Positions 13,667 through 37,708 of a DNA stretch of 42,068 bases are shown here, in pieces. The notes under the pieces were generated by a model. The model was given only the letters and a program-made list of their open reading frames with translations. It searched no databases and was not told the origin of the DNA. A program made the position numbers and the translations under genes. Each line of letters starts with the position of its first letter. Positions within the stretch are counted from its first letter, which is position 1. The DNA comes from a virus. Its lineage: Duplodnaviria; Heunggongvirae; Uroviricota; Caudoviricetes. The stretch lies in IMG/VR virus record IMGVR_UViG_2585427763_000002. One strand, given 5' to 3'.

Positions 13667-14134
13667 ATGAAGCAAATATACATGCTTCGCAACGAAGCAA
13701 TCAGAAACAACGCCATAGACGCAATACTCTCACTTCCGATCGACGACAAGTCACCTCACGAAGTCCACATTAAAGAACCAAAGCGGAGCAATCCTCAAAA
13801 CCGCCTTATGTGGGCGTTATTGCAGGACGTATCACGTCAGGTGCTTTGGCATGGAAAGAGACTTGCGCCGGAGGACTGGAAAGATCTGTTCACTGCCCTG
13901 TGGCTTAAGACCAAAAAACTGGAGCAACGAAGTGCGCCTGGTATCGACGGTGGCGTTGTTATGCTTGGTGTGCGTACCAGCAAAATGCGAAAGGCCAGCA
14001 TGACTGAGCTTATCGAAATCATGTTTTGGTTCGGCTCAGAGCGCAACGTGCGGTGGAGTGATGACTCCCGGCGAGAGTATGAATGGTCACAACGGAAAGG
14101 TAACACGGACAATATGCGAGGGTTGAATGATTAA
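13667..14134 (+). CDS. ninB: NinB (Orf-family recombination mediator)
   Basis: Start ATG 13667 after GAGGTGA; ...NPQNRLMWALLQDVSRQVLWHGKRL...WSD... resembles lambda NinB. Confidence 0.8.
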   Translation: MKQIYMLRNEAIRNNAIDAILSLPIDDKSPHEVHIKEPKRSNPQNRLMWALLQDVSRQVLWHGKRLAPEDWKDLFTALWLKTKKLEQRSAPGIDGGVVMLGVRTSKMRKASMTELIEIMFWFGSERNVRWSDDSRREYEWSQRKGNTDNMRGLND

Positions 14135-18712: not shown

Positions 18713-19146
18713 GTCGGTTAACCGCGATTATCTCCGCTCTGATTATCTGCATCGTCGTCTGTCTGTCATGGGCGGTCAATCATTACCGTGATAACGCCAT
18801 GACCTACAAAGAGCAGCGCGATAAGGCCGCATCCACAATCGCTGACATGCAGAAGCGTCAACGTGATGTAGCAGAACTTGACGCCAGATACACAAAGGAG
18901 CTTGCTGATGCTAATGCGACTATCGAAAGTCTCCGTGCTGATGTTTCTGCTGGTCGTAAGCGCCTGCAAGTCGCCGCCACCTGTGCAAAGTCAACGACCG
19001 GAGCCAGCAGCATGGGCGATGGAGAAAGCCCAAGACTTACAGCAGATGCTGAACTCAATTATTACCGTCTCCGAAGTGGAATCGACAGGATAACCGCGCA
19101 GGTTAACTACCTGCAGGAATACATCAGGACGCAATGCCTTCGATGA
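18709..19146 (+). CDS. Rz: Rz i-spanin
   Basis: Start ATG 18709 after GGGGTG; N-terminal TM helix then coiled-coil periplasmic domain; Rz1 embedded in +1 frame. Confidence 0.8.
18914..19093 (+). CDS. Rz1: Rz1 o-spanin lipoprotein (embedded in Rz)
   Basis: [34 protein letters not shown]...: lipobox LVVSAC followed by Pro-rich segment. Confidence 0.7.
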
Positions 19147-30640: not shown

Positions 30641-31990
30641 ATGGCTACGTGGCAACAGGGTATTAATTCTGGTGGTTTTCTGGCTGGAATTGGTGCGCAA
30701 AATGAGAATGCGCCAAAGGCAAGCGACATTAACGCAACGCTTGGTCTGATCCGCGAAAACAATGAACTGGCTCGATCAGGTGCAAATAACGTTGGTCTGA
30801 CCGCGTTACGTGGTCTGGCTGGAGTTGCTGATATTTATAAGCAGGAACAGCAACAGAAAGCGATTAATGCGTTCAATAAGGTTCATGCTGATGCATGGGC
30901 TTCTGGTGATCCATCGGGACTATTTAAGTTTGCCCAGGAAAATCCAGCGTTTGTTGCACAGGCACAACAGGCGTTTTCCGGTCTTAATGAGCAGCAACGC
31001 AACGATATGGGCGATTTAGCCATGAGGGCTAACGTCGCTCTTTCCCAGGGACCGGAAGCCTACAGTAAATTCATTACTGACAACAAGGACAGGTTAAATC
31101 GCGTTGGTGCTAATGCTGACTGGATGATTCAGACAGGTATCCAGAATCCAGAGCAGCTATCACACATGCTGACTACTATGTCTCTCGGTGCACTTGGGCC
31201 AGAAAAGGCGTTTGCTGTTCAGGATAAGATGGTTGGTCGCCAGCAGGAGCAGCAAAGAATTAACGAAACCATTCGCAATAATGACATGACGAATGCGAGG
31301 GCTATTAGGGGGCAGGATCTTTCCTATAAGGCTCAAATGGCAAGACTGAATCACGACAAGTATGTGTTTAAGCAGTCACAGGCGGCCCTTGAAAGAGCAG
31401 GACAACTTCAGGATATGGATGTTTTGTCTCTTAACTCACAGATAGCAGCGACGGGAATTGATCCGCTAACCGGTAAAGCTGCAACGTCAGCCAGAATGTC
31501 TCAGGCTAAGAGATGGCTTGATGGCAACAATAATTACAACAATGCGTTGATTACTGGTGAGCGAGGGATAGAGAAAATAGATTCTTTGCTTGGTAAGAAG
31601 GAGCTTGAAGGTATCGGTCGCTTCGAAGGAAGAAATATAGATGGCTTCACAAGTGCTGAAGGGCTTGCAAACCGTAATGCGATAGAAGAATTAAAGTCGG
31701 GTGCGTTTGTCCAGAACGTGCAGACTATGCGAGGTATGGGTAGCCTCTCCAATGCTGAAGGACAAAAACTGGAAAACCTTATCGCGAAACTCGATATAAC
31801 ACAGCCTGAAGAGGTCGTCAGAAAACAGTTATCTGAAATCCGATCGCAATATTCTGTATTTCAAAAGGTTGCAGCAAGGGAGGCTGAATCAATGGGATAT
31901 AGTTCATCAGGTTATGACACATATGTTAGTGAGCGAAAATCAGGAAGCGACAGCAATAAGTCCGGTTTCTCGTCTTTATGGGGTGATTAA
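30641..31990 (+). CDS. Ejection protein, P22 gp20-like
   Basis: 449 aa in conserved order after gp7-like gene. Confidence 0.65.
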
Positions 31991-34158
31991 TGGCTAAAGC
32001 ATGGAAAGATGTTATCGCTTCTCCACAGTATCAGGCGTTAACTGAAGAACAGAAAGCACAGGCTCAAGCGCAATATTTTGATGAGGTTGTTGCCCCTAAG
32101 GCTGGTGACAAATGGGCTGAAGCAAGAGATCAGTTTTATGCAGCATACCCTCCACCTCAGCAGCAGAAAGAAGAACCATCATTGATGCAACAAGCTGGTG
32201 ATTGGCTCACAGGTGGTCAAAGTGCAGGGCAAATTGCAGAACAGGCTGGTCGTGGTCTGGTAAACATACCATTTGACGTATTGCAGGGTGGCGCAAGTCT
32301 GATTAATGCAATCAGCCAGGGGCTTGGTGGCCCAAAGGTTTTGGATGATGTCTATCGTCCAGTCGATCGACCGACAGACCCTTATGCGCAAGCCGGTGAA
32401 ACAATTGGTGGGTATCTCCTGCCAATTGGCACAGCGGCAAAAGCTGCTGGAGCGCCAGCAAAGCTCGCTGGAGATATCGGTTCCGCAGGAAACATGATTG
32501 CAGGTTCTCTTGCTGATGCTGCAAATCAGGAGGGCGACTTTGCACAAAATGCTGCCATTAACGGTGGTATCAATATTGGTGCTCAGGGGATACTTTCTGG
32601 GGCTGGAAGGATCTTAACCTCTAAATCACCTCAAGTTCTTGGTGGCGGGGCAATAAATTCCGCTGCTGATGTTTCGAAAATGGCAAAGTCTGGTACAGGA
32701 AGAGAGATTATTGCCAGACAGTCAGCTAATGTGTCAGACGAAATAGCAAAAGCAGCAGATACTGCTGGAATAGATATCAACGCATTAACTCCTGGCATGA
32801 GATCAGGTAGTCGTGGTCTTGCTCAGGCGGAGGGGATTCTGGCGTCAAAGCCCGGAATTACACAGGATGCACACACCAAAGCATTCAGTGAAATAGAGTC
32901 GAAATTTAACTCAGCATTGGATGAGTTTGGGGCTGAAGCAGGAACTGCATCAGAAAAAAGTGCAGCCATAAAACAAAGGGTTTTGGCAAGTATTGATAAA
33001 ATGAAAAATTCAGAAAAGGCTGCATGGGATAGCGTCCGCTCCACGATGCCTGACGCAAAGGCCAGAATGTCAAACCTGAATGCTACAATTCAGGGTGATA
33101 TTTTGGCTGGCATGCCGCTAACTCCTGAGATGAAACAATTCGCATCTGCTTATGCTAAAACTGGTAAAAAAGGAATCACGTTTGATGCCATGAAGGCATG
33201 GCGAAGTAAACTTGCTGACGCAGAGCAGAAGTATATAAGGTCTGGTGAGGCAAATACGGCAAGGCGCATGGCGGAGCTTCGTGATGCAGCAACGGAAGAT
33301 ATGCGCATAATGGCTCAAAATGGCGGTTTTCTTGATGACTGGCAAAAAGCTAATGATCTGTCAAAGGCAAGATTTACAGCACAAGAACAGGCTGAAGCAG
33401 CGTTTGGTAGAGACCTTGCAACTGATCAGTTGGTAACTAATGGATCTAAGGCGTTACAGGGTTCAGCAAAAAGTGGAACAGGTCAGTTCCATAAAATAAT
33501 AAGCGCCCTACCTGAGTCGGAACGCGCGCCAGCAATTGCATCAATATTACAAGATGCAATGTCGCAAGGGGTACGCGGAGGTAAGTCTGAAGAGGCTGGA
33601 ATTAAGCATATCGCGACTATTCTTACCCCACAAAACGTGAAGGCAATTAGTCGATATTCTCCAGAACTTGGCAGGATTACAAGTTCATACGGAGAACTTG
33701 CACGAGCAGCAACAAAGCCACTTCGATATATTGAACAGACAGGGCGATCTATGCCAGCCATTAGCACTCTTGAGAATGGCCTTCATCCAGTTTTAGAGAG
33801 CGCATTGTCTGGCGCTTTTAGAACTACTGGCACTATCGCAGGGTTCTCTGGAGGAGGCGTTATTGGAGCAATAGCGGGTGGCGCTGCAGGTGGGGCAATT
33901 GATGCAATGGCAAAAGGAGCGATAGCGAAATTATCCGCAACTAGAAGCGGTCGTTACGCTATTGAAAAGGCTGTTCAAGAGGCAACAAAGGCAGTTAAGG
34001 TTGGGGCAAGTGATGGTGCATTAGCGGCGGCGGAACGCAGATTTATGGCAAATAAGGCCGCCGTAAAAGCAATACGCGAGGCACTAGGAAACGAAGAGTT
34101 CCAGCGTTTAGCAAGAGCTGGAATTGTGGCATCGCTAAGCGGAATGGCACAGGAGTAA
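31990..34158 (+). CDS. Ejection protein, P22 gp16-like
   Basis: 722 aa, Ala/Gly-rich; last gene of rightward virion operon before the accessory island. Confidence 0.65.
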
Positions 34159-34488
34159 TTAGTCATCCATGGATGGATTGAGCTTATCTCGTGTTGATGT
34201 GGCAATTTTCCCAACATTTTTCAACCAAGATTTTAAGAAGGATATGTCGTCCTTAATATCATGAATATCCTCATTCTTTATACGATCAACCTTATCCTCT
34301 AAGCTCTCTATAGAACGCTCAATGCTAGACAGAGAGATTTTTAAGTCCCCTTGCTCACGTTCCAGTGAGGATTTGAGAGCACAATATTCGTTTTCTAGAA
34401 TTCCTATTTTTTTTGTTAGAGAGTGCATTCGATACTCATACACCAAACCAGAAACGACTAATGCAGCCAACAGAAACCATTCAAGCAC
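34159..34488 (-). CDS. Small membrane-anchored coiled-coil protein (accessory; function unknown)
   Basis: 109 aa; N-terminal TM helix MLEWFLLAALVVSGLVYEY then heptad-like charged repeats; divergent from Panacea-like gene across AT-rich promoter region. Confidence 0.5.
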   Translation of the reverse strand: MLEWFLLAALVVSGLVYEYRMHSLTKKIGILENEYCALKSSLEREQGDLKISLSSIERSIESLEDKVDRIKNEDIHDIKDDISFLKSWLKNVGKIATSTRDKLNPSMDD

Positions 34489-34856
34489 ACCAACCTCCTT
34501 AGTTTTGCTCAGGATACCAGATGATACTTTATTGGTGGAGTGGTGTGTGAAAACGTGTCAACGACAAACCATCCACAACTTGGACGAATGATTTAGCAAA
34601 AAGTGCTATTTTTGGTGTTTGGTGTCATAGAAAAGTGAATAGCTCACTTTTCAACATTGCATGAAACTTGCAGGAAATGTGACATTACCTTATAGGTAAC
34701 TTCGGCGAAAATGCAGTAAATGTGAAACGTAATGGTTTAAACATGTCGCTAAAGTGGTTGTAAGTTAGCCTCCGAAGGATTGCTGATAGCTTTGTTATAG
34801 TATTAAATGACATTTGACATAGTTGGATACTTAGCTGTGGCTATCAAGATGGAGGT

Positions 34857-35306
34857 GTGTTCATGCTTACTTGTTTTGATGTCGCCGACTACTTCCTGTC
34901 GCGGTGTGACGAGGATAGCGGTGACGCAATCTCTAATTTAAAATTACAAAAGCTTGTTTACTATGCTCAGGGTTTTTCATTGGCGTTGCTTGGCGAGCCT
35001 CTTTTTCAGAATAAGATGGAAGCTTGGATGCATGGCCCTGTTGTCCCTGAGCTTTATCACCGTTATAAACAATATGGTAATGGTGCTATCCCTTCTCCAG
35101 AGTCTTTTGATGCTGAAAAATTCAGCGAAGAACAGTTAGAGCTATTAGAAGAAGTCTGGGATGTTTTTGGGCAATTTTCTGCCTGGAAACTGAGGAACAT
35201 GACACACGAAGAGTCACCATGGAGATCAAACTATATTGAGGGTGTTGGTGGTTCTGAAATTAGTTCTAAGGAGATGGCAGAGTACTTTGCAACTCGGATT
35301 AACTAA
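34857..35306 (+). CDS. Panacea (DUF4065; SocA/GepA-type) domain protein, candidate antitoxin
   Basis: 149 aa; ISNLKLQKLVYYAQGFSLALLGEPLFQNKMEAWMHGPVVPELY matches the Panacea consensus as recalled. Confidence 0.6.
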   Translation: MFMLTCFDVADYFLSRCDEDSGDAISNLKLQKLVYYAQGFSLALLGEPLFQNKMEAWMHGPVVPELYHRYKQYGNGAIPSPESFDAEKFSEEQLELLEEVWDVFGQFSAWKLRNMTHEESPWRSNYIEGVGGSEISSKEMAEYFATRIN

Positions 35307-35310
35307 CGAG

Positions 35311-35730
35311 ATGGCAAGAAAATCTAAAAGGATTATCCCCCCTGCTGAATCTACAGGTAAGTTAAAGTTAGGGCCGCAGTCAGGGGGGAATTCAGATCAA
35401 AAGAAACCGAAATTTTCATTCTGTTACATCCAAAGCTCTCACTGCATAACGAAATGCCAAAAAGATGAGAAAGCTGGCTTAGCTGATAAATTATACAGAT
35501 TAAGTCAACTAACATGGGCAGATATTAAGCAGCAAGGTAGGCATAAGCTTGGATTTGAGAAGATTGCAAGGGGTGCAATTAAAGCAGGTATCCCCAGTCA
35601 TATAACGGAAGACGTAGATCATTTCTTGGCTTTTAGATTTGATGATTTGAAAGCCATGGTTGGTTATCGTCTTGGATCGACATTTTTTGTTATATGGCTT
35701 GATAGAGAGTTCAACCTATACAAGCACTAA
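35311..35730 (+). CDS. Unknown protein coupled to Panacea-like gene (candidate toxin/effector)
   Basis: 139 aa from ATG 35311, 4 nt after upstream stop; basic N-terminus; no recognised family. Confidence 0.5.
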   Translation: MARKSKRIIPPAESTGKLKLGPQSGGNSDQKKPKFSFCYIQSSHCITKCQKDEKAGLADKLYRLSQLTWADIKQQGRHKLGFEKIARGAIKAGIPSHITEDVDHFLAFRFDDLKAMVGYRLGSTFFVIWLDREFNLYKH

Positions 35731-35731
35731 T

Positions 35732-35757
35732 AAAACCCCCCGTCAGGTGGGTTTTTT
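35732..35757. terminator. Putative bidirectional terminator between convergent genes
   Basis: AAAACCC-(10 nt loop)-GGGTTTT with T-run, between 35730 (+ gene end) and 35743 (- gene end). Confidence 0.4.
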
Positions 35758-35994
35758 GTACAAATCCTTCAGCGTATCAAACACCATCTTCCTAACAAGT
35801 TCGGACTGCTCATCAGCGATGCGTTCTGCATCGTCTCGATAGCCTGCAATTGGTGATGGTTTTGATAGCGCATCCTGAACGATTTGTAATAACTCTGAGT
35901 TCATTGACCTTCCGTTAGCCTCTGCTCTTAATTTCAATTTTTCTCTTACTTCCAAAGGCATACGGAAGTTAAAGTGCGGATCGTCTCTAGCCAT
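35743..35994 (-). CDS. mnt: Mnt repressor (Arc/MetJ ribbon-helix-helix), P22 immI type
   Basis: 83 aa, MARDDPHFNFRMPLEVREKLKLRAEANGRSMNSELLQIVQDALSKPSP... recalled as near-identical to P22 Mnt. Confidence 0.8.
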   Translation of the reverse strand: MARDDPHFNFRMPLEVREKLKLRAEANGRSMNSELLQIVQDALSKPSPIAGYRDDAERIADEQSELVRKMVFDTLKDLYKKPT

Positions 35995-36017
35995 GCCATC
36001 ACTCCAAGTTAGTATCT

Positions 36018-36281
36018 CTAACTTTCGTCTTTATTGTTGCTATACATGCATTTCAACTTCTCAACATCATGTTCAAGATCTATCAATCGTGATGCTATAG
36101 TTGCAAGGTCTAGTGCTTGAATGTGTTTATTTTTTTCGGTCCATGCTTCAAGTGCCGCGACCATCTCAGCATTTAATGAACGAGAATTAGCCTCAGCCAG
36201 TTCAATAAGACGTTCCTTTATCTCTACAGGAAGCCTCAGATTCACTTGAGGGTTTTTGTACTTACGATCAGACATCGGCAC
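36018..36281 (-). CDS. Second ribbon-helix-helix (Arc/Mnt-like) protein
   Basis: 87 aa; PQVNLRLPVEIKERLIELAEANSRSLNAEMVAALEA RHH signature plus C-terminal extension. Confidence 0.6.
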   Translation of the reverse strand: MPMSDRKYKNPQVNLRLPVEIKERLIELAEANSRSLNAEMVAALEAWTEKNKHIQALDLATIASRLIDLEHDVEKLKCMYSNNKDES

Positions 36282-36380
36282 ATCCTGAATAATTTTTTAC
36301 CACAGGATATGTAGGTATCTATTGACTATCAATGCGTACCTAAATACTATGTATGCGTACCACATACAACGGAGGATGCA
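36282..36380. promoter_or_regulatory. Divergent immI-like promoter/operator region
   Basis: AT-rich interval with direct repeats ATGCGTACC (x2) between leftward RHH genes and rightward arc-like gene. Confidence 0.45.
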
Positions 36381-36521
36381 ATGAAGGTAAAAACACTGCG
36401 TATGCCAGAGAAGTTAGAAAAAATCCTTGAAGAGAAAGCAAAGGAAGAGTGTCGCTCATTTAGTGCAGAAGTAATTAAACGGGTGATGGACAGCCTGAAG
36501 AGAGAGGGGATAACGGTATGA
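36381..36521 (+). CDS. Arc-like ribbon-helix-helix repressor
   Basis: 46-aa ORF (MKVKTLRMPEKLEKILEEKAKEECRSFSAEVIKRVMDSLKREGITV) after GGAGGA; below ORF-track cutoff. Confidence 0.5.
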   Translation: MKVKTLRMPEKLEKILEEKAKEECRSFSAEVIKRVMDSLKREGITV

Positions 36522-36721
36522 GTAAAGAATGTTGTTTCTGCGGCATTAGCGAATCAGACGCTGATCAAACATACATTTACTCTAAAGAAACAGGTCGGAT
36601 GCTGTGTAGTGACTGCGTGTTGGACATCATAAGATACAAGCATCTTGGATGTTCTGCCAGCATTAGCAATATAGGTGAAGTATATGAAGGGAAAGATATA
36701 ACTGATAGAGCAGAAAGTTGA
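36518..36721 (+). CDS. Small zinc-ribbon-like protein
   Basis: 67 aa with CxxC...CxxC pattern (CCFCG ... CSDC); ATGA-coupled to arc-like stop. Confidence 0.45.
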   Translation: MSKECCFCGISESDADQTYIYSKETGRMLCSDCVLDIIRYKHLGCSASISNIGEVYEGKDITDRAES

Positions 36722-36784
36722 AGCCCCAACTGCGGTAACAGTCAGGGCTTCGGTATCGTAAAACCACGCATAGGAATTAACGAC

Positions 36785-37708
36785 ATGAAAAGTATAGCAA
36801 CAGCAGTATCTACTATCAATGTACCATTCCACGGCGCAGAGCTTTATGTTGTCAATCACAACGGTGAGCCGTACACCCCAATGAAACCTATCGTTGAGGG
36901 AATGGGTATGGATTGGGCTTCACAGTTTACAAAGTTAAAACAAAGATTTGCTAAAGGTATTGTGGAAATCGCAATACCTTCAGTTGGCGGTGTGCAGAAC
37001 ATGATTTGCCTTGCTTTACGTAAACTTAATGGCTGGTTGCAAACCATCAGTCCTAACAAAGTCCGCCCTGAAATCCGCGACAATGTAATCCAGTATCAAG
37101 AAGAGTGTGACGATGTGCTATACGAGTACTGGACTAAAGGCCATGTAGTTAACCCACGCAAAGCTAAAAAGGCGTTGCCGGGTAAAATCACCACTGAGCA
37201 GCAGGAAGCCATTAAACAACTCGTCATGAGTCGCGGTCAGTCTCTGCCAAAAGAAAAACAGGCTAAGGCGATGATCACCATGTGGTCGTCACTGAAATCC
37301 CATTTTGGATGTTCGTACAAAGAAATCAGTGAGGAGCAGTTTACCGAAGCACTATCGCTTGCAGCTCGAGTTCCACTTGAAGGTGAGTTCATTGGCAAAC
37401 AAGAGAAGAAAACCAACGAGCTTTCTGCAAAAGAAGCAAACAGCCTTGTATGGCTATGGGATTATGCCAACCGCTCACAGGCATTATTCCGCGAATTGTA
37501 TCCGGCGCTAAAACAAATTCAATCGAACTATTCAGGCAGATGCTACGACTACGGTCATGAGTTCTCGTATGTTATCGGAATGGCGAGAGATGTTTTAATT
37601 AATCACACACGAGATGTTGATATCAATGAGCCAGACGGACCAACGAATCTTTCTGCATGGATAAGACTTAAGAACAAAGAATTACCTCCTTCAGTACATA
37701 ACTACTGA
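36785..37708 (+). CDS. ant: Antirepressor (Ant-like)
   Basis: 307 aa downstream of arc-like gene as in P22 immI; followed by strong terminator. Confidence 0.65.
   Translation: MKSIATAVSTINVPFHGAELYVVNHNGEPYTPMKPIVEGMGMDWASQFTKLKQRFAKGIVEIAIPSVGGVQNMICLALRKLNGWLQTISPNKVRPEIRDNVIQYQEECDDVLYEYWTKGHVVNPRKAKKALPGKITTEQQEAIKQLVMSRGQSLPKEKQAKAMITMWSSLKSHFGCSYKEISEEQFTEALSLAARVPLEGEFIGKQEKKTNELSAKEANSLVWLWDYANRSQALFRELYPALKQIQSNYSGRCYDYGHEFSYVIGMARDVLINHTRDVDINEPDGPTNLSAWIRLKNKELPPSVHNY

Follow-up and report, generated by a model that had tools for sequence, protein, structure and literature searches.

Small, single- or double-pass inner-membrane proteins that block the entry of phage DNA and are expressed apart from the surrounding structural operon (morons) include gp15 of phage HK97, the C-terminus of which is thought to be periplasmic, and Imm of phage T4. 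Among P22-like phages, superinfection exclusion has been described for SieA (types A, B and C), which is encoded by 22 of 66 sequenced members of this group, has low expression from the prophage and is functional with 85 base pairs (bp) of upstream DNA (PMC10883804). The conserved motif of SieA is cytoplasmic, escape mutations fall in the C-terminal regions of gp16 and gp20, and the SieA proteins of P22 and HS1 exclude phages with HK620 ejection proteins only about 3-10-fold (PMC10883804). The transcript STnc6030 of the BTP1 lysogen confers phage-specific exclusion that blocks infection and not induction, with escape changes in the C-terminus of gp16 (PMC7067206). The variability of the slot in which sieA lies is known under the name 'ant moron', with ten types in sixteen genomes (PMC2629481). 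Here we analyze hkcB, a small gene that occupies the position of sieA in a virus sequence of 42,068 nucleotides (nt) (IMG/VR record IMGVR_UViG_2585427763_000002; this whole stretch is hereinafter the window), which is a P22-like (Lederbergvirus) prophage of Escherichia coli. We find that hkcB encodes a real, selected protein, a membrane-anchored coiled coil with a constrained C-terminal domain, and that it is preceded by the same 34-nt block as sieA of P22; by analogy with SieA, HkcB might be an exclusion factor for P22-like phages.

hkcB in the slot of sieA

As an open reading frame (ORF), hkcB is not new: it was named in coliphage HK620 in 2001, and its annotation is still hypothetical, the RefSeq label in every E. 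coli genome with hkcB being 'hypothetical protein'. The ORF at 34159-34488 on the minus strand of the window encodes a protein that is identical to HkcB of HK620 at 98.2% (tblastn) or ~99% (MAFFT) of the positions and to the homologue in vB_EcoP-611R6 at 99.1%; the surrounding 801 bp (34100-34900) are a 100% match to E. coli strain XJ23PTE1. A second HkcB subtype, ~50% identical to the first, is encoded by hkcB in CUS-3 and SEN22 and by gene 14 in the Salmonella phage eps34; the homology to hkcB and the similar position were already noted in the eps34 genome paper, where the function was given as unknown (PMC2629481). Of 5426 complete E. coli genomes, 82 carry type-1 hkcB and ~35 others carry the diverged type, which together amounts to about 2%. 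The features of hkcB and its immediate flanks in the window are:

34159-34488, minus strand: hkcB coding sequence, 109 amino acids (aa), GTG start, TAA stop abutting the TAA stop of gene 16
34438-34485, minus strand: N-terminal hydrophobic (transmembrane, TM) helix, codons 2-17, from the Kyte-Doolittle profile
34261-34428, minus strand: heptad-repeat (coiled-coil) region, codons 21-76, variable among subfamilies, from heptads, AlphaFold2 and PDB profiles
34162-34293, minus strand: conserved C-terminal domain, codons 66-109, KVDRIKNEDIHDIKDDISFLKSWLKNVGKIATSTRDKLNPSMDD, from the alignment and the ratio of nonsynonymous to synonymous substitution rates (dN/dS)
34486-34519, minus strand: conserved 34-nt expression block, TGGTATCCTGagCAAAACTAAGGAGGTTGGTGTG, with a candidate extended -10 element, the Shine-Dalgarno (SD) sequence at 34494-34500 and the GTG at 34486-34488
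31990-34158, plus strand: gene 16 (HK620-type ejection or DNA-transfer protein), which converges on hkcB at a distance of 0 nt, product 95% identical to HK620 gp16
34520-34856, no strand: variable portion of the interval between the divergent genes, a 100% match to phage Emek

In P22, gene 16 is followed on the opposite strand by sieA, and hkcB has the identical place and orientation in every genome examined. The gap between gene 16 and hkcB is 0 nt in the window, HK620, 611R6, eps34 and CUS-3, and 3-4 nt in the distant members (loci L008 and L009/L010); hkcB lies directly after the last ejection gene, as an earlier note on this DNA had stated, and no terminator-like site was found after hkcB, the stop codon of which abuts gene 16. 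In Emek, the same slot is held by orf129, which encodes a signal-peptide protein. Alignment of the upstream regions revealed a consensus block, TGGTATCCTGnnCAAAACTAAGGAGGTTGGTGTG, that is common to sieA of P22, hkcB of HK620, 611R6 and the window, gene 14 of eps34 and orf129 of Emek, and the HK620 DNA 5' of hkcB is homologous to the PsieA region of P22 for more than 100 bp. The conservation of the block was judged in 36 type-1 IMG/VR loci that were found via the protein, not via the block. In these loci, hkcB is located behind at least nine unrelated upstream contexts, of which eight converge on the block, and in these eight the block is 100% conserved except for two 'nn' positions; in the ninth, CUS-3-like context (4 loci), only the SD is kept and the upstream genes are on the same strand. 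In addition, the block marks the mosaic junction at the left of the cassette: the window is 100% Emek-like to the left of it and HK620-like to the right.

The element TGGTATCCT (34511-34519), located 20 nt 5' of the start codon, fits the extended -10 sequence TGnTATAAT at the critical positions T-12, A-11 and T-7, and the two variable bases of the block would fall in the discriminator, between the -10 element and the transcript start. This conserved element (TGnTATCCT) is the likeliest promoter signal of hkcB; judged by its sequence, the block would fit a weak promoter independent of a -35 element, with a predicted transcript start ~6-8 nt 3' of TATCCT, near 34504-34506 on the minus strand. 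The SD sequence AAGGAGG is located 5 nt 5' of the hkcB GTG, and there is no earlier in-frame start after the preceding stop codon. Two IMG/VR loci (L043 and L044) carry a 7-nt duplication in the SD region (CTAAGGAGGTTGGAGGTTGGTGTG), which results in two tandem SD copies 5' of hkcB.

A scan of IMG/VR with the block yielded more than 120 matches, for 80 of which the loci are listed (L051-L130). Among the matches listed, the ORFs that start at the block GTG comprise 12 families that are mutually unrelated by BLAST:

HkcB, 19 loci
orf129, 11 loci
75-aa protein with two TM helices, 9 loci
62-aa protein with two TM helices, 8 loci
second 109-aa family with a TM helix and a coiled coil (phrog_8100), 7 loci
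SieA, 6 loci
six rarer families, 2-4 loci each

A hydrophobic helix or signal peptide is present in 11 of these 12 listed families (P ~1.5e-5 if 30% is expected) and, apart from SieA, none of the 12 has a known function. BLASTP detected no homology between HkcB and the other slot family that combines a TM helix with a coiled coil (cc109, phrog_8100). None of 40 hkcB loci contains sieA, and one contig carries two slot genes in tandem behind the SD of the block. The shared 34-nt block, the breadth of the cassette families and their envelope bias were not found described in the literature searched. In prophage Gally of E. coli LF82 (L172 34855-35340, minus strand), the slot gene encodes a lipoprotein of 161 aa (lipobox LLAGC), and the conserved block is absent. 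According to the LF82 transcriptome paper, no moron of Gally exceeds background by more than 5-fold, which means that strong expression in lysogens is not common to all slot genes; these data do not apply to the expression of hkcB because the slot gene of Gally is a different one.

The HkcB protein and its family

The Kyte-Doolittle scan identified a single hydrophobic segment in HkcB, with the best 15-residue window at residues 2-16 (mean 2.16) and a segment spanning residues 1-19 at the 1.6 threshold. The heptad positions a and d are 75-88% hydrophobic over residues 19-76, and the AlphaFold2 model is a single continuous helix (residues 2-103) with a mean predicted local distance difference test (pLDDT) score of 84. 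The minus-strand ORF of 109 aa with one N-terminal TM helix and a heptad region, which the earlier note had described, is borne out. A PDB profile search with HkcB matched only the coiled coils of GCN4, keratin and vimentin, and a Foldseek comparison of the model with BFVD gave no match, a single helix being uninformative in any case. HkcB of the window has no lysine or arginine before the TM helix and has R20, K26 and K27 after it, and in all HkcB subfamilies there is no positive charge before the helix and lysine or arginine just after it. Because of this distribution, under the positive-inside rule, the topology of HkcB in the inner membrane would most likely be N-out/C-in, with the coiled coil and the conserved domain facing the cytoplasm.

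Comparison of hkcB of the window with gene 14 of eps34 gives a dN/dS of 0.24 overall and about 0.15 in the C-terminal codons 66-109 (dN 0.17, dS 1.19), where the protein is near-invariant and the synonymous sites are almost saturated; in the N-terminal two-thirds of the gene, DNA identity drops to 50%. The combination of saturated synonymous sites with a low dN therefore indicates constraint on the C-terminal 44 residues of the protein, not on the DNA. The W-x-x-NVG motif of the C-terminal domain is kept, as W(L/V/I)xNVG, in the most distant true members of the family, P0030 (104 aa) and P0032 (96 aa), which also keep the anchor and the coiled coil. The guanine-plus-cytosine (GC) content of hkcB is 37.9%, versus 47.7% for gene 16 and 47% for the window.

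The family is very small. An exhaustive hidden Markov model (HMM) search of 1.84 billion cluster representatives found 11 matches at E<=1e-3; the informative matches are without exception this slot gene, and long coiled-coil proteins make up the end of the list. A scan of genome contigs with the HkcB alignment gave 31 pattern matches, none of which was confirmed, a result that reflects the limit of the pattern method and does not speak for absence. HkcB residues 2-109 are matched by phrog_5962 (E=1.9e-61), which carries the PHROGs label 'unknown function'. In Pfam, NCBIfam and PADLOC, HkcB had no match beyond coiled-coil noise below the threshold (FlaC_arch, BicD and ASRP, as well as DpdH at E=0.002 without a passing stretch).

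Several candidate identities were tried and rejected. Homology to SieA was dismissed since BLASTP gave no alignment at E<=100 and the FxRYPxEAxxFNK motif is absent. HkcB is not a spanin, given that the window has its own Rz/Rz1 at 18763-19143 and no alternative-frame ORF is present inside hkcB. Mimicry of, or paralogy to, gp7, gp20, gp16 or other products of the window was likewise rejected, nothing better than E=0.06 having been found. Homology to a structural or assembly protein, which the earlier note had named as the finding that would speak against its reading, was searched for and none was found.

Some annotated and metagenomic versions of hkcB differ from the 109-aa form. N-terminally extended versions (134-179 aa) occur in P0005, P0027, P0028 and P0024 and in the 611R6 annotation (L003 4001-4405); their frames begin at an ATG further upstream and run across the conserved block and the SD, and they are almost certainly gene-calling artefacts. 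Two chimeric ORFs (P0022 and P0023, from metagenome contigs of 1.3-1.7 kb) combine a foreign, non-hydrophobic N-terminal half of ~60 aa with an intact C-terminal domain of HkcB, which suggests intragenic recombination or modular use of this domain.

Possible functions of HkcB

Mnt is the lysogen-expressed repressor of ant in P22. In CUS-3, the gene order is mnt-mnt-orf-orf-hkcB on one strand with short gaps, and in a distant prophage (L008) hkcB is located 36 nt after mnt on the same strand. We consider that hkcB is probably made at a low level in the lysogen, because the block precedes sieA of P22 as well or, in some relatives, through reading from the mnt operon. In BTP1, a transcript from the place and strand of the slot is abundant in the lysogen (PMC7067206). 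The earlier note had taken the gene for lysogen-expressed cargo, possibly an injection blocker: the sieA slot, the block that sieA has at its 5' side and the same-strand position after mnt elsewhere give this proposal strong circumstantial support, although the blocking function itself is one that we infer.

In the mechanism that we propose, hkcB would belong to a large set of small envelope-protein cassettes that can replace one another between gene 16 and the immI/tailspike region. Its transcription would run opposite to that of the late operon and start from a block with an extended -10-like element, a strong SD and a GTG start. Its product would insert in the inner membrane by the N-terminal helix, with the coiled-coil stalk and the 44-residue C-terminal domain in the cytoplasm, and, like SieA, would exclude superinfecting P22-like phages via interference with the gp16/gp20 DNA-delivery conduit at the inner membrane, being possibly tuned to the HK620/CUS-3-type gp16 C-terminus linked to it. 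By analogy with SieA, exclusion of P22-like phages may well be the function of HkcB, an assignment that we put forward tentatively and place somewhat short of probable; that interference with the gp16/gp20 conduit would be the means is a more doubtful proposition. Given that SieA acts only weakly on HK620 ejection proteins and that gp16 of the window is 95% HK620-like, a different blocker in HK620-type phages is plausible.

HkcB is found only beside gp16 of the ...GIVASLSG[MI]AQE type (18 of 18 loci, gap 0), to which the C-terminus of gp16 in the window belongs. This type of gp16 also occurs with a few other cassettes, and each cassette family goes with a particular gp16 C-terminus. Subtype 1 of HkcB is found with the HK620 type of the gp16 C-terminal 150 residues, and subtype 2 with the CUS-3/eps34 type. 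In our comparison, gp16 of CUS-3 (L007, CP000711, 3822-5981) and gp16 of HK620 (L001 1832-4000) are 78% identical globally and 64% identical over the last 150 residues; these two proteins were stated to be only 26% identical in PMC10883804. If the 78% figure is right, the determinant of the partial SieA resistance of HK620 narrows to the C-terminal third of gp16.

Several points weigh against an exclusion function or against parts of the evidence for it. HkcB and SieA show no similarity of sequence, motif or architecture (one TM helix versus three), and guilt by position is weak since the other cassette families have no known function. The 0-nt gap makes the linkage between HkcB and gp16 expected and, therefore, no proof of co-adaptation. 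The block has no conserved -35 element, the consensus scan made no promoter call there, and the block could be only a 5' untranslated region with a ribosome-binding site and a recombination joint. The predicted topology is derived from the positive-inside rule only. Among near-identical type-1 hkcB alleles, the ratio of nonsynonymous to synonymous differences (pN/pS) is 0.71, a value that comes from 25 changes only, and no expression or phenotype data for hkcB were found in the literature searched.

HkcB could instead be another anti-phage factor, either a sensor or effector tethered to the membrane, by which infection would be aborted once the DNA has entered, following the logic of SieB or Rex, or a defence against unrelated phages. 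The expression context fits this explanation equally, the toxin-antitoxin-like pair with a Panacea domain in the same island (see below) suggests a defence hotspot, and the predicted cytoplasm-facing coiled coil would suit the sensing of an intracellular phage product. However, the PADLOC search gave only noise, HkcB consists of one helix with no enzymatic or pore-forming domain, and the sole characterized slot gene and the BTP1 transcript both act at entry, so that we regard a post-entry defence as rather improbable.

The likelihood also appears small that HkcB is a lysogenic-conversion factor that acts on the host envelope (division, envelope stress or gut fitness), as an adaptor like PspB, ZapG/YhcB or FtsB. 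A short N-terminal anchor followed by a coiled coil of ~100 aa is a feature of several host membrane adaptors, and both the moron-like low GC content (37.9% versus 47%) and the presence of the gene in about 2% of complete E. coli genomes, in many hosts, are compatible with such a role. On the other side, there is no Pfam match to DivIC, PspB or DUF1043 even at E<=0.1, and the family is confined to the gene-16-adjacent slot and counts 11 clusters among 1.84 billion proteins, which suggests a partner specific to phages rather than a general host target.

A main role that is regulatory in cis, with the peptide secondary, seems to us quite unlikely. Under this explanation, antisense transcription into the 3' end of gene 16 would alter read-through of the late operon or expression of gene 16 and the tailspike, or the transcript would act as an exclusion RNA. 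Such a role would agree with the 0-nt gap and the lack of a terminator-like site between hkcB and gene 16, with the interpretation of the BTP1 slot transcript as an antisense RNA (PMC7067206) and with the effect ascribed to the ant moron on read-through into gene 9 (PMC2629481). It is at odds with the selection on the protein (synonymous divergence pS of 0.6-0.7, dN/dS of 0.15-0.26), with the retention of the TM helix, the coiled coil and the W-x-x-NVG motif in members with unrelated DNA, and with the conservation of the strong SD and the start codon. Finally, that hkcB is a decaying or functionless ORF hitch-hiking beside gene 16 is hardly credible: the type-1 pN/pS of 0.71 and the truncated or chimeric versions (P0011-P0016, P0019, P0022-P0026 and P0031) could be read in this way, but almost all loci, and five diverged subfamilies, retain an intact frame of 104-109 aa, constraint on the C-terminal domain is strong and the initiation signals do not vary.

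If the exclusion reading of HkcB is extended to the whole locus, the ant moron would have, at the end next to gene 16, a hypervariable locus dedicated to exclusion cassettes. The block would then double as a transferable signal for expression and as the recombination joint on the left; behind it, P22-like phages would swap at least a dozen unrelated small envelope proteins, such as SieA, HkcB, orf129 and micro-proteins with two TM helices, each travelling with and matched to the adjacent gp16 C-terminal module. HkcB would be a mechanistically new member, a coiled-coil plug that faces the cytoplasm and closes the HK620-type conduit, which SieA is unable to close. We offer this broader scheme as a possibility of which we are doubtful. 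If HkcB and its sister cassettes do exclude phages, the slot would amount to a compact library, assembled in nature, of small membrane proteins that jam the same three-protein conduit in different ways, and would provide tools to dissect how gp7, gp20 and gp16 cross the envelope. It would also account for the variability of gp16 and gp20, which among the virion genes is second only to that of the tailspike, and would be of use in predicting which P22-like phages and prophages of E. coli and Salmonella are cross-resistant.

Surroundings of hkcB and comparison with known systems

Upstream of hkcB, beyond the divergent interval, the window encodes a Panacea-domain pair followed by the immI region:

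34857-35730, plus strand: Panacea (SocA-like) gene at 34857-35306 (PF13274, E=8e-25) and the gene for its 139-aa partner at 35311-35730 (phrog_1281, phrog_8366)
35743-35994, minus strand: mnt, 83 aa, Arc and Repressor_Mnt domains
36018-36281, minus strand: second Arc/Mnt-like gene, 87 aa, an extra repressor in immI
36381-36521, plus strand: Arc-like short gene, 46 aa
36518-36721: cysteine-rich ORF, 67 aa, phrog_7150
36716-36783, minus strand: sar RNA, Rfam, 85.7 bits
36785-37708, plus strand: ant

The interval between hkcB and the divergent Panacea-domain gene is 368 bp with 38.3% GC (47% for the window), in agreement with the AT-rich interval of ~370 bp that the earlier note had reported, and in Emek the same interval separates the unrelated slot gene orf129 from the same Panacea gene. 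The TTGACA-like elements that the note had pointed out are present, one perfect hexamer per strand (34814-34819, plus strand; 34561-34556, minus strand), but were rejected as promoters: neither has an acceptable -10 partner, and a consensus promoter scan found 5 sites versus 5.3 expected in shuffles, and none on the minus strand of the interval. An Rfam scan for non-coding RNA found none in the interval, the only match being sar at 36716-36783.

A functional link between hkcB and the Panacea pair was also rejected. Their pairing is incidental, hkcB being located behind at least nine unrelated upstream contexts with most loci lacking the pair. The Panacea protein itself (149 aa) overlaps or abuts its partner (phrog_8366), the sole other match of which is weak (PADLOC NsnC, E=4e-6), and the two genes are also found together in phages Emek and phiv205-1. 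A direct repeat, TGCAGGAAATGTGA / TGCAGTAAATGTGA, at 34669-34682 and 34712-34725 (43 bp apart) lies 5' of the Panacea-domain gene and could be an operator pair that autoregulates this toxin-antitoxin-like pair. Between the Panacea partner gene and mnt there is a terminator-like hairpin (35739-35751), and the immI region (the remainder of the ant moron, 35743-37708) looks complete, with one repressor extra.

SieA of P22 is among the described systems closest to HkcB. Both genes are located in the same slot and on the same strand, convergent with gene 16 and between genes 16 and 9, and both follow the same 34-nt block with its candidate -10 element, SD and GTG. Both products are small predicted inner-membrane proteins, the most conserved part of which is predicted to be cytoplasmic, and the two are mutually exclusive within a prophage. 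They differ in that SieA has 3-4 TM helices (3 hydrophobic segments by Kyte-Doolittle) and the FxRYPxEAxxFNK motif, whereas HkcB has one TM helix and a coiled coil and lacks the motif. Furthermore, HkcB is linked to gp16 of the HK620/CUS-3 type, not of the P22 type, and an exclusion phenotype has been shown for SieA only.

STnc6030 of BTP1 is encoded, like hkcB, at the same place and on the same strand, antisense to the 3' end of the gene 16 homologue. Unlike hkcB, STnc6030 was described as a non-coding antisense RNA, and a distance of only 155 bp separates gene 16 from the tailspike gene in BTP1, which has neither hkcB nor the conserved block. In our analysis of this region (L171, LT714109), positions 14011-14082 on the minus strand contain a 23-aa hydrophobic micro-ORF, MERDLLNFVFLIFGLVVGKLLFA, with a GGAGGG SD located 5 nt before the ATG, that overlaps the stop codon of gene 16 by 12 nt. 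Because infection and not induction is blocked, and because the escape single-nucleotide polymorphisms are non-synonymous and lie in the gp16 C-terminus, the published STnc6030 phenotype fits a SieA-like protein block better than an antisense mechanism. As a corollary of the exclusion-cassette scheme, STnc6030 may work through the 23-aa hydrophobic peptide in the slot.

The i-spanins of the Rz type, FtsB/DivIC, PspB and ZapG share with HkcB only the N-terminal anchor and a coiled coil of ~80-100 residues. For the i-spanins, the weak match of HkcB to phrog_739 (Rz-like, E=0.07) is set against the location of hkcB outside the lysis cassette, the absence of an embedded o-spanin ORF and the lack of the positive N-terminus that an N-in/C-out orientation would call for. 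HK97 gp15 and T4 Imm are unrelated to HkcB in the family-library searches, and neither has a long coiled coil. Of the features of morons, hkcB shows a GC content that deviates from that of gene 16 and a slot content that varies among relatives, but no terminator of its own. In terms of function, HkcB would be a structurally unrelated kind of prophage inner-membrane superinfection-exclusion protein beside SieA, HK97 gp15 and T4 Imm.

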